From Octopus vulgaris (taxonomy: Eukaryota): 64,000 nucleotides of DNA. The translations under genes were made by a program, and so were the position numbers. Where the stretch lies: the NCBI GenBank assembly GCA_951406725.2, contig OX597820.1:89094001-89158000 (forward strand), in the 5' to 3' direction. The notes beneath the pieces are model-generated. The model saw nothing but the letters and a program-made list of their open reading frames with translations. It had not been told where the DNA came from and did not search any database. How positions within the stretch are numbered: the stretch's first letter is position 1; each line of letters begins with the position of its first letter. This document shows positions 49,940 to 60,260 of this stretch, in pieces.

Positions 49940-50674
49940 ACCAAAATTTTGGGGGAGAGGGCTTGTCGATTAGATCGGCCCCAGTACGCTACTGGTACTT
50001 AATTTATCGACCCCAAAGGGTTGAAAGGCAAAGTTGACCTCGGCGGAATTTGAACTCAGAACATAAAGACAGAAGAAATACCTATTTCTTTACTACCCAC
50101 AAGGGGCTAAACACAGAGAGGACAAACAAGGACAAACAAACGCGTTAAGTCGATTATATCGACCCCAGTGCGTAACTGGTACTTATTTAATCGACTCCGA
50201 AAGGATGAAAGGCAAAGTCGACCTCGGCGGAATTTGAACTCAGAACGTAGTGGCAGACGAAATACCTATTTCTTTACTACCCACAAGGGGCTAAACACAG
50301 AGAGGACAAACAAGGACAGACAAACGCGTTAAGTCGATTATATCGACCCCAGTGCGTAACTGGTACTTATTTAATCGACTCCGAAAGGATGAAAGGCAAA
50401 GTCGACCTCGGAGGAATTTGAACTCAGAACGTAGTGGCAGACGAAATACCTATTTCTTTACTACCCACAAGGGGCTAAACACAGAGAGGACAAACAAGGA
50501 CAGACAGACGGATTAAGTCGATTACATCGACCCCAGTGCGTAACTGGTACCTAATTTATCGACCCCGAAAGGATGAAAGGCAAAGTCGACCTCGGCGGAA
50601 TTTGAGCGTAACGGCAGACGAAATACGGCTACGCATTTCGCCCGGCGTGCTAACGTTTCTGCCAGCTCGCCGCC
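49940..50674 (-). mobile_element. Tandem array of SINE family B, 184-bp period
   Basis: cctatttctttactacccac starts at 50081, 50265 and 50449. There is a single complete head at about 50674, and an older copy at the left end. Confidence 0.9.
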
Positions 50675-54889: not shown

Positions 54890-55092
54890 CACCTTGATCA
54901 CCTTGACCGACCAGTCCGTCATGCGTCCATTTGACACCGTTGGTCACAGCACGCTGTCCACTCCTCTCTGGATCGCGCCTTTCTCATCCACATGATCCCA
55001 ATCATCCTCCTGAAATCGTAACTCCACCGTCGTGGAGGCCTTCCGGGTGGTCGTTTCCGCTCGCGCGGGTACCACTCGACAACTGCGCGAGT
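54889..55092 (-). mobile_element. RTE-clade LINE 3' end (ORF C-terminus and tail)
   Basis: TRAVVEWYPRERKRPPGRPPRRWSYDFRRMIGIMWMRKARSREEW...DA*, then tail ctggtcggtcaaggtgatcaaggtga running into (TA)n. Confidence 0.88.
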
Positions 55093-55663
55093 ATACGATG
55101 GCAAGATGGATGCATTGTGAGATTAGGGAGAGCAGAAGGTGCTAGATCGGTCGGAAGTATCGGATTCATCGTAAGTAAGGAATGGGCTTCGAGAGTCGCT
55201 TCTTACCAGTTCATATCATCACGGATTGGTGTACTGAATGTGAACCTCTCAGGGAAGGCCACCCTCAAGATTGTCCAGACCTATGCTCCCACAAGTGCCA
55301 GCGACGACGACGAGGTGGAAGAATTCTATCGACAATTAGACAAAGAGCTGGCTGTGAAGTCCACTTACACTGTTGTGATGGGAGACTTCAACGCAAAGGT
55401 TGGGCATGGACGACAAGGAGAGGAGTACGTCGGGAGATTCGGCATGGGAGAGAGAAACGAGAGAGGAGAACGTTTGGTTACCATGGCAGAGGCGAGGCGG
55501 CTCTACATCGGAAACATTCAGGAAGAGGGAGAGGAAGAGATGGACCTGGATATCGCCGAACTCTAAGCACCGAAGCGAGATCGACTACACCCTGGTTGAT
55601 AAGCGACGCATATTACATGACGTCTCCGCCGTGACGACGCCATTCAACACCGGCAGCGATCAT
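55093..55663 (+). mobile_element. Inverted APE-endonuclease segment of an RTE-clade LINE (frameshifted)
   Basis: GSIGFIV...SSRIGVL...IVQTYAPTS...VVMGDFNAKVG...RNERGERL, a frameshift at about 55515, then WTWISPN...EIDYTLV...NTGSDH. These are canonical APE motifs. Confidence 0.92.
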
Positions 55664-55672
55664 ACACACACA

Positions 55673-55727
<55 letters not shown>

Positions 55728-55886
55728 ATTGGCAGGGCTGGCCTGCTAGGTAGCCGGCCAGAATGCTAGAAATAGATCATAAACGATCAAACTACAAGGG
55801 AAATTCTCTAGAGGAAGAATTCAGCGAACACCAGAACCAAATTTGGCGGGCAGGACATATGAAAAATTAAATAAAAAACAGACTTA

Positions 55887-55962
55887 AATGCATACCTCGG
55901 TTTCGGTCTTAACAAAAGAATTACTTGCATAATTCAAGTGTCCGTGACTTCTTCAGTACATT
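55887..55962 (-). ncRNA. Type I hammerhead ribozyme motif (monomer copy 1)
   Basis: Reverse complement of 56891-56966. Confidence 0.7.
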
Positions 55963-56432
55963 CGGTCCTCGAGATGCAAACCGCAAGACTAACCCCAGCT
56001 CTCTGTGTCAAGACAGACACGTGCTTAGTCTTACTGATTACATCGGGAATAAAATTTCAAATGTCTTGGTTCCGGCGCGCTAAGAGACTCCTGAAGCGAA
56101 GGGCTGCAGTGAATAATTCACTGCGGGTAAAGCTTACTACTAGGGAACGTATTTATTTAAATATTTAAAAATTGAGGGAGATAAATTAATATTAATTTTA
56201 ATATCAATTTAAAACCAGTAGTCCAGCATTCAAAAAATCTGAGGAGTCAGAGAAAATTCAAATATATGTGTATATTGGCAGGGCTGGCCTGCTAGGTAGC
56301 CGGCCAGAATGCTAGAAATAGATCATAAACGATCAAACTACAAGGGAAATTCTCTAGAGGAAGAATTCAGCGAACACCAGAACCAAATTTGGCGGGCAGG
56401 ACATATGAAAAATTAAATAAAAAACAGACTTA

Positions 56433-56508
56433 AATGCATACCTCGGTTTCGGTCTTAACAAAAGAATTACTTGCATAATTCAAGTGTCCGTGACTTCTTC
56501 AGTACATT
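56433..56508 (-). ncRNA. Type I hammerhead ribozyme motif (monomer copy 2)
   Basis: Same as copy 1, 546 bp away. Confidence 0.7.
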
Positions 56509-56890
56509 CGGTCCCCGAGATGCAAACCGCAAGACTAACCCCATTCTGGCCGGCTACCTAGCAGGCCAGCCCTGCCAATATACACATATATTTGAATTTT
56601 CTCTGACTCCTCAGATTTTTTGAATGCTGGACTACTGGTTTTAAATTGATATTAAAATTAATATTAATTTATCTCCCTCAATTTTTAAATATTTAAATAA
56701 ATACGTTCCCTAGTAGTAAGCTTTACCCGCAGTGAATTATTCACTGCAGCCCTTCGCTTCAGGAGTCTCTTAGCGCGCCGGAACCAAGACATTTGAAATT
56801 TTATTCCCGATGTAATCAGTAAGACTAAGCACGTGTCTGTCTTGACACAGAGAGCTGGGGTTAGTCTTGCGGTTTGCATCTCGAGGACCG

Positions 56891-56966
56891 AATGTACTGA
56901 AGAAGTCACGGACACTTGAATTATGCAAGTAATTCTTTTGTTAAGACCGAAACCGAGGTATGCATT
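56891..56966 (+). ncRNA. Type I hammerhead ribozyme motif (inverted copy)
   Basis: AAUGUA-CUGAAGA-AGUC[37 nt]GACC-GAAA-C(CGAG)G-UA^-UGCAUU. Stem I is AAUGUA/UGCAUU, stem II is extended with an A-C first pair, and stem III is minimal. Predicted cut after 56960. Confidence 0.7.
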
Positions 56967-57226
56967 TAAGTCTGTTTTTTATTTAATTTTTCATATGTCC
57001 TGCCCGCCAAATTTGGTTCTGGTGTTCGCTGAATTCTTCCTCTAGAGAATTTCCCTTGTAGTTTGATCGTTTATGATCTATTTCTAGCATTCTGGCCGGC
57101 TACCTAGCAGGCCAGCCCTGCCAATATACACATATATTTGAATTTTCTCTGACTCCTCAGATTTTTTGAATGCTGGACTACTGGTTTTAAATTGATATTA
57201 AAATTAATATTAATTTATCTCCCTCA

Positions 57227-57268
<42 letters not shown>

Positions 57269-57398
57269 ACGTACATATATATACTTACATACAACCCACA
57301 CACACAGTATTCTGAAATGTGGAAATTGACGATTTAAAGTCTGTTCTCAGCATATTGGCATAGAAATTTTTTTTTTCTTTTGCTCTTGTTTATAAGTT

Positions 57399-57446
<48 letters not shown>

Positions 57447-57530
57447 AATATTAGGGAATAAATCCAAATTTACAGGGAAAAATCAGATTAAGGATTAAAA
57501 CCAATTTTATAGTAAAATATTATAATATTA

Positions 57531-57769
57531 TATAATATAATTCGAGACAAAACCACTATTTTGCAAAACAAACAAGGAAAGACTTAATCAATACATAAAA
57601 ACTTCATAAATTAAAACAGATTAGGAGATCGAAAATCCACCTGACGAATGTCATTGAAGACATGAAACGATTGTAGTGGCGGTTTATTTCTTTATATTAA
57701 AATTTTTATGTATTGATTAAGTCTTTCCTTGTTTGTTTTGCAAAATAGTGGTTTTGTCTCGAATTATAT

Positions 57770-57773
<4 letters not shown>
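57531..57773. repeat. 71-bp perfect inverted repeat enclosing a hammerhead
   Basis: 57531-57601 is the exact reverse complement of 57703-57773. Confidence 0.92.
57637..57679 (+). ncRNA. Type I minimal hammerhead ribozyme motif
   Basis: CCAC-CUGACGA-AUGUC(AUUGAA)GACAU-GAAA-C(GAUU)G-UA^-GUGG. Full core with 4-bp stem I and 5-bp stem II. Predicted cut after 57675. Confidence 0.8.
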
Positions 57774-57824
<51 letters not shown>

Positions 57825-59247: not shown

Positions 59248-59837
59248 ATTCTTTTCATTTTTCCGAGCGTCAAACAAATACACTTGCTTGATCGTACACC
59301 TGTTTTCGTCCTTTGCTTTCCTATATATTTCAACAACTATATATATATTCTTTTATTTGTTTCACTCATAAGACTGTAGCCATGGTGGGGGTCACCGCCT
59401 TGAAGAAGTTTAGCCGATAGAATTGACCCCAGTACTTCTTATTCTCTCGGTTCTTTTTGCACACTATCACCGATTGTCAAGCGGCGGTGGGGGATAAACA
59501 CAGTCACACACACACACACACACGACGGGCTTCTTTCAGTCTCTGAGTACGAAATTCACTCAGGGCTTTGTTCGGCCCGAGGCTATATTAGAAGGCACTT
59601 GCCCAAGGTGCCACGCAGTGGGACTTAACCCAGAACCATATGCCAGGATAAACACATTTCTTACTAGGCAGCCACACCAGGGTTTATACGCAGTTTCGAT
59701 CTATCGAATTCATTCAAAGCGTAGGTCAGTTCGGGGCTATAGAAGAAAACACCTGCCAAAGGTACCGCGCAGTAGGACTGAACCCGAAACCCAATCATTG
59801 CCAAACGAGCTTTTTAATCACACAGTAGCGGCAGTCG

Positions 59838-60260
59838 AAATACCTATATCTTTACTACCCACAAGGGGCTAAACACAGAAGGGACAAACAAGGACAGACA
59901 AACAGATTAAGTCGATTATATCGACCCCAGTGCGTAACTGGTATTTATTTAATCGACCCCGAAATGATGAAAGGCAAAGTCGACCTCGGCGGAATTTGAA
60001 CTCAGAACGTAGCGGCTGACGAAATACCTATTTCTTTACTACCCGCAAGGGGCTACACACAGAGGGGACAAACAAGGACAAACAAACGGATTAAGTCGAT
60101 TACATCAACCCCAGTGCGTAACTGGTACTTATTTAATCGACCCCGAAAGGATGAAAGGCAAAGTCGAACTCGGCGGAATTTGAACTCAGAACGTAGCGGA
60201 AGACGAAATACTGCTGAGCATTTCGCCCGGCGTGCTAACGTTTCTGCCAGCTCGCCGCCT
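59838..60260 (-). mobile_element. SINE family B tandem dimer
   Basis: Two ~184-bp units joined at gacgaaatac|ctatttc, with one complete head. Confidence 0.88.

Follow-up and report, generated by a model that had tools for sequence, protein, structure and literature searches.

The head-to-head insertion in the window

The stretch of DNA analysed here (the window, 64,000 nucleotides (nt) of contig OX597820.1 of Octopus vulgaris) harbours an insertion built from a 546-nt repeat unit with a GC content of 38.6% and a predicted type I hammerhead ribozyme motif. The family to which this repeat belongs is read here as a non-LTR retrozyme (LTR, long terminal repeat) whose DNA copies are made from an RNA circle by the enzyme of a Penelope-like element (PLE) of the Neptune type resident in the genome, most likely that of the family designated P2, and we assign this reading a probability of roughly 0.62. 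The insertion consists of two arms running in opposite directions between (TA)n runs at 55676-55729 and 57232-57283. Starting at 56543 and read on the minus strand, the left arm matches the unit over 821 nt apart from one mismatch (828 nt including an AT microhomology) and thus spans 1.5 units; the right arm begins at 56542 and matches it over 692 nt, or 1.27 units, with no mismatch. With window position 56689 taken as phase 1 of the unit, the predicted cut lies at phase 272/273 and the 5' starts of the arms lie at phases 168 (left) and 400 (right), so that the insertion is no symmetric fold-back. The dinucleotide CA at 56542-56543 is common to both arms, and the outer ends correspond to the two preferred 3' ends of the family, site B on the left and site A on the right.

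Hammerhead cores (CTGAAGA) are located at +56897, -56502 and -55956, three motifs altogether, with predicted cuts after 56960 on the plus strand and after 56439 and 55893 on the minus strand, the left-arm pair being 546 nt apart. No protein was found in the insertion: its longest stop-free frame comprises 97 amino acids (aa), is antisense to the ribozyme and has no Pfam match, and an open reading frame (ORF) for reverse transcriptase (RT) and GIY-YIG endonuclease (EN) was absent from the unit by frame and Pfam analysis. The original prediction, made from the letters of the window, had described the unit, the lengths of the arms, their different starting points, the CA junction, the (TA)n setting and the lack of a credible ORF, and in all these points it is confirmed. 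The features of the insertion are as follows.

55716..56543, minus strand: left arm of 1.5 units, from a 5' end at phase 168 to a 3' end at site B; its stretch 55716-55722 matches the flank as AT microhomology
56542..57233, plus strand: right arm of 1.27 units, from a 5' end at phase 400 to a 3' end at site A
56542..56543, no strand: CA microhomology between the two 5' ends
56890..56967, plus strand: type I hammerhead motif, predicted cut after 56960
56432..56509, minus strand: type I hammerhead motif, predicted cut after 56439
55886..55963, minus strand: type I hammerhead motif, predicted cut after 55893
55893..56438, minus strand: predicted monomer of 546 nt, bounded by two cut sites; folding z = -4.1 (linear) and -4.4 (circle)
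57221..57234, plus strand: site A, the commonest 3' end of the family, resembling the main end of PLE family P2
55716..55741, minus strand: site B, the second 3' end, resembling the tail end of P2
55676..55722, no strand: (TA)n target, left flank, repeat run
57234..57283, no strand: (TA)n target, right flank, repeat run

The repeat family and its two-site end rule

The 546-nt repeat is a young, non-coding family with hundreds of copies. In the genome searched (2.8 Gb, 227 contigs), exact matches to the hammerhead motif numbered 331 for subfamily A and 167 for subfamily B, and the shared 3' motif gave 549 matches, with none in the controls of either search. The subfamilies are about 10% diverged from each other, and the loci of subfamily A are about 2.5% apart. 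The unit also occurs in related species (organisms B-D). A first sample of 108 mapped insertions (78 of subfamily A, 30 of B), picked as the best full-length matches or via the hammerhead motif, was reduced to 107 by dropping one duplicate; a second comprised 33 further insertions, 32 of them picked via the 3' motif, arrays having been inspected only among the listed motif matches. The 107 loci are arranged as 63 head-to-head, 39 single-arm and five compound insertions, and at least two cut sites are covered by 24 of 122 subfamily-A arms. None of the 141 loci runs on into an RT/EN frame in the position expected if the unit were the pseudo-LTR (pLTR) of a PLE; PLE pieces occur within the fetched flanks at seven of them, none contiguous in that position. 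The claim that the element is a non-coding hammerhead tandem of the retrozyme kind, as opposed to an ORF-attached pLTR, accordingly stands. Some insertions (L159/L160, L014 and L272/L273) are same-junction duplicates, apparently produced by later segmental duplication.

The 3' ends of the arms fall mainly at two places. Among 165 such ends, 87 are at site A (phase 528-16) and 60 at site B (440-459), with 12 at minor TA spots and six elsewhere; both sites are AT-rich and they lie about 110 nt apart. A microsatellite adjoins 152 of the 165 ends, a (TA)n targeting like that of Neptune and Naiad. Exactly one A end is present in 60 of the 63 inverted insertions, against 31.5 expected (p ~4e-15), the pairs being 46 A/B, 11 A/minor, three A/other, one A/A and two B/other. 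In the second sample, where selection guaranteed one A arm and compound, duplicated and cut-off cases were left out, the other arm was never A in 15 of 15 simple inversions. This pairing excludes a fold-back artefact as the origin of the head-to-head insertions. The 5' ends are scattered, with a hot spot at a hairpin at phases 160-170 (10 of 122 ends, 2.5 expected) and a mild excess 5-16 nt downstream of the cut (five arms). A pile-up of 5' ends at the cut site itself was considered and rejected, since only two of 122 ends (1.8 expected), and none of 60 in site-A arms, fall there. The idea of the original prediction that permuted ends are the trace of a circle is not supported, and its expectation of scattered ends is contradicted: the 5' ends scatter, but the 3' ends, 147 of 165 at two fixed sites, do not.

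The head-to-head layout is the signature of Penelope-like insertion, and it is very probable that PLE machinery inserted these copies. Six short inversions (L259, L265, L280, L282, L283 and L292) have arms that stop at near-equal unit phases, some of them at palindromes, consistent with annealing of cDNA ends there.

The hammerhead motif and the candidate helper

The predicted ribozyme has a helix I of 7 bp, the core CUGAAGA, a helix II of 3 bp with a long extension, and a helix III of 2 bp with a tetraloop. An alignment of 59 sequences, from which four junction or deletion cases were removed, left 55 distinct natural hammerhead sequences in which 97.5% of the cells are paired. Two-sided changes affect one pair of helix I (39 AU, 11 UA, 1 CG) and one pair of helix II (33 UA, 16 CG); they largely track the subfamily split and so represent few independent events. 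The motif differs from the usual one in its long helix II and in an A.C mismatch at the base of that helix, and Rfam scans of the region gave no hammerhead and no other credible match, the Hammerhead_1 covariance model (RF00163) included. The assignment of one type I hammerhead to each unit holds, with the qualifications that the motifs number three altogether and that Rfam misses them. A search of the genome with the Rfam type I hammerhead (73 candidates scored) led to six other places (L239-L244), none of them the 546-nt unit; three of these (L240, L241 and L244) are mutually related hammerheads with a long helix II, unrelated to the unit. A pattern for relatives with a shorter helix II matched eight times against four in controls, three of the matches being family members and one leading to subfamily B. 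The monomer folds better than its shuffled versions (z = -4.1 as a linear molecule, -4.4 as a circle), and in the circular monomer the active hammerhead fold is predicted to lie 2.0 kcal/mol above the optimum.

Among the PLE families recovered by a GIY-YIG search, P1 and P2 carry RT and GIY-YIG frames of 781 and 775 aa, respectively, with a cysteine linker of the Neptune/Nematis type, a motif described in PMC8557442. Both are young families, the copies of P1 being about 99% alike and seven copies of P2 being identical over 920 bp, and both sit in (TA)n. When inverted, their insertions carry a tail at one end and none at the other in 5/5 cases for P1 and in 19/20 for P2, two of the 20 having been scored by eye; in an anole element the tail is reported to mark two RT start sites (PMC8557442, PMC11167929, PMC3846280). 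The main end of P2 aligns best to site A of the unit (18/22 columns, a score reached by 7/400 shuffles) and its tail end best to site B (23/32 columns with a 4-nt gap, 1/400 shuffles), and the ends of P1 and P3 score against the unit at the level of chance. One base change in the site-A motif, a hint from a single site, is common to older P2 copies and subfamily B. P1 was considered as a direct parent and rejected, there being no DNA homology and a likeness of its main end to site A that is only weak (110/400 shuffles). It is somewhat better than an even guess that P2 is the specific helper, and priming in trans by its enzyme is predicted.

Several further features of these PLEs were noted. 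A separate frame of 479 aa in P1 (L094:768-4471) and 557 aa in P2 (L315:915-4825) lies upstream of the RT frame and overlaps it; these frames share 38% identity over 168 aa, Pfam gives no match to that of P2 and only a weak sub-threshold one to that of P1, and PLEs with a frameshift-separated ORF1 are mentioned in PMC8557442. The pLTRs of P1 (L094:244-747) contain a hammerhead-like motif with a U3/A8 core variant. The youngest P2 copies (3' ends of L308-L314) have an altered base in the conserved GAAA, which is intact in older copies, suggesting that the active P2 family does without cleavage. The tail end of P2 is positioned within the loop of a predicted stem-loop (L315, about 925-985), and the start site of the anole PLE is likewise reported in a stem-loop (PMC11167929).

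Elsewhere in the window, a piece of the endonuclease frame of a long interspersed nuclear element (54907-55660, a weak Exo_endo_phos match), which we take to be of the RTE type, stops at the (TA)n that holds the insertion. Inverted arms of 76 nt, 99% complementary and spaced by 95 nt, at 57529-57775 may be a small inverted insertion or a miniature inverted-repeat transposable element. Related 184-bp tandem repeats occur at 49965-50605 (3.5 copies) and 59825-60211 (2.1 copies) and presumably resemble short interspersed nuclear elements. No tRNA was detected in the region.

Template, alternatives and comparison with known systems

Variation within and between insertions, compared over 68 subfamily-A loci with compound and mis-aligned loci skipped, suggests that one monomer is copied repeatedly. 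Shared minor alleles agree in 136/141 tandem comparisons and in 154/172 comparisons between arms, against 15% between loci; 19/99 locus-private variants are present in every unit, and 31 haplotype patterns were found among 37 loci with long arms. Among 60 site-A arms from two contigs, termination occurs at a roughly constant rate, giving roughly geometric lengths, with 13/60 longer than one unit, and arms reach up to about four units. The cut site is passed by 30/33 site-A arms, none of which stops within 3 nt of it, and no indel occurs there in 1422 columns. Under linear inheritance such truncation would erode the arrays, so that the monomer must be re-multimerised often, and a ligated circle is the simplest way to do so. 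A circular monomer template is probable, and on this point the genomic evidence favours the original prediction. One back-joint found in X1 contigs from sequencing runs is explained equally well by tandem DNA.

The ends of the unit obey the same two-site rule as an active PLE, from which it is likely that the element spreads as an RNA circle copied by the enzyme of that PLE. A read-through transcript of an arm that has two hammerheads, as the left arm in the window does, would free a 546-nt monomer that would be ligated to a circle. The RT/GIY-YIG protein would then nick both strands of a (TA)n tract, the preference for this target being observed, and cDNA would be primed at site A by one nick and at site B or a nearby TA-rich spot by the other, at the end positions seen in the insertions. 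Each cDNA would be extended around the template, past the cut site, over a distance that is roughly geometrically distributed and reaches about four units at most, as in the observed length pattern. Joining of the cDNA ends by annealing via microhomology, of the kind found at the junctions, would finally give a head-to-head insertion with unequal outer ends. The mixed haplotypes of L187, in which four identical units stand beside an arm of another haplotype, imply that two RNA molecules can serve one insertion. In a bolder version, tentative and rather doubtful, the element would be a viroid-like 546-nt RNA circle of no pLTR origin that parasitises one active PLE by mimicking its two RT start motifs in reversed order and with another spacing. 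In that case, two RNA motifs recognised independently of each other, one for each nicked strand, would determine the PLE tail, and the genome would record the rolling reverse transcription of an RNA circle.

Several observations weigh against the retrozyme reading. The case for the ribozyme consists of folding and covariation, with cleavage, the RNA and the circle known only as predictions; the covariation amounts to two pairs, mostly tracking the subfamily split, and most copies have A.C at the base of helix II instead of G-C, which is found in some subfamily-B copies. In Xenopus, 8/9 predicted retrozyme dimers are reported to give no cleavage in vitro (10.64898/2026.07.22.740005). The likeness to P2 is short and, of necessity, AT-rich, and was noticed before being tested; 6/480 windows of P2 and 3/508 of P1 outscore the end windows against the unit, scores as high are attained by 1-2% of PLE windows, and in an ungapped test site B was not the top match of the P2 tail. 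Beyond the two short motifs no extended homology was found between the unit and any sampled pLTR, and profile comparison of 46 arms with 27 PLE and hammerhead loci gave no match. The order of the unit, hammerhead-B-A, is not a cyclic permutation of the hammerhead-main-tail order of P2, the likeness to A and B being in reversed order. The PLE families of the genome were sampled only partly, 150 of 6136 GIY-YIG candidates having been scored. Finally, the arms of a few insertions, L187 among them, differ in haplotype, and gene conversion or homogeneous linear masters could likewise give identity within arrays.

The alternative that survives best, unlikely as it is, holds that the element is a non-autonomous PLE passenger inserted from multimeric transcripts of tandem arrays that stay linear and uncleaved, the hammerhead being incidental or weak and no circle being formed. 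Uncleaved RNA accounts equally well for cDNA that passes the cut site; hammerhead mutants of the anole PLE are reported to insert unaffected, with unprocessed RNA as the main substrate (PMC11167929), and the hammerhead core is altered in young P2 copies. Against this, the geometric decay of arm length, by which only 13/60 site-A arms exceed one unit, would erode the arrays, no 5' end is common to the long arms, the arrays are homogeneous inside and different from one another, and the helices are kept across the subfamilies. A long master array on a contig outside the listed motif matches is conceivable. It is improbable that a linear monomer, cut by the hammerhead or transcribed as such, was multimerised by precise template jumps of the RT, or that arrays were homogenised later by gene conversion. 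Autonomous PLEs do form partial tandems with no known circle (PMC8557442), and two haplotypes are mixed in some insertions, yet the cut site has neither a pile-up of 5' ends nor indels, and the four identical units of L187 adjoin an arm of a different haplotype. Slightly more improbable still is an ordinary solo or tandem pLTR of an autonomous PLE outside the sampled families. All PLE insertion hallmarks are present, and pLTR homology is reported as frequent in Xenopus retrozymes (10.64898/2026.07.22.740005), but none of the 141 loci continues into an RT/EN frame in pLTR position, the tandem units follow each other directly with no ORF sequence between them, and the sampled PLE families give no match. 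It is hardly credible that the inversion is chimeric, an artefact of assembling a simple tandem repeat. Assemblers are troubled by inverted PLE structures (PMC8557442), but the arms are asymmetric, the junctions vary by locus and the A/B pairing rule holds in 60/63 and 15/15 cases.

The return of animal retrozymes to genomes is a proposal in the literature, in which PLEs are named as possible helpers and circles as possible templates (PMC7229834, 10.64898/2026.07.22.740005). No published account of the 546-nt element or of end-pairing in retrozymes was found in a search to which Repbase and Dfam, which may hold it as an unnamed repeat, did not belong. With a specific RNA, a specific intact enzyme as candidate, start sites that are mapped and ends that pair strictly, the family would allow both the circle and the helper to be tested in an in vitro assay of a type that exists for PLE insertion (PMC11167929). 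It bears on the unexplained tail and inverted ends of PLEs, and a short RNA inserted in trans into (TA)n would define the minimal cis signals for PLE-type insertion.

As judged from its sequence, the unit has the characters of a non-LTR retrozyme; it appears to work as a PLE passenger does and is no autonomous PLE. With the metazoan non-LTR retrozymes described by Cervera and de la Pena (2020, PMC7229834) it has in common non-coding tandem units, a type I hammerhead with a 2-bp helix III and tetraloop, a GC content below 45%, a self-paired monomer and coexistence with PLEs. It differs from them in its length of 546 nt, theirs being about 170-400 nt, and in its dispersed short arrays of at most about four units, set in (TA)n and mostly head-to-head, and its long helix II. 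In that work the circles are experimental and PLE helpers are proposed, whereas here the insertion signature is mapped and the RNA is predicted. The vertebrate retrozymes described as PLE derivatives by Li, Clavereau and Pollet (bioRxiv 10.64898/2026.07.22.740005) share with the unit low repeat numbers and the link to PLEs, and their consensus lengths of 51-972 bp include its own, so that the unit, which the original prediction had taken to be longer than other animal retrozymes, is not exceptionally long. Their link consists of pLTR homology and co-occurrence, with tandems taken as local amplification; the present one consists of shared insertion behaviour and two short end motifs.

The EN-bearing PLEs of the Neptune/Nematis type (PMC8557442, PMC11167929, PMC3846280) likewise have partial tandems, an inverted 5'-truncated copy, a tail at one end only, a (TA)n target, a hammerhead upstream of the 3' end and two RT start sites. 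In contrast to them, the unit has no ORF, its ends are offset by about 110 nt as compared with 30-40 nt, and of its two sites the tail-like one comes upstream of the main-like one. Non-autonomous Chlamys elements such as MRC1, as described in PMC8557442, are also non-coding PLE passengers with multicopy head-to-tail insertions; they resemble their helper at the 3' end and mostly have no hammerhead, whereas the unit shares at most two short motifs with its candidate helper and has a hammerhead. The retrozyme class, the proposed link to PLEs and lengths up to 972 bp are already in print. What the genomic data appear to add is a strict two-site end rule held in common with a nameable active enzyme, together with signs that one monomer is copied repeatedly.
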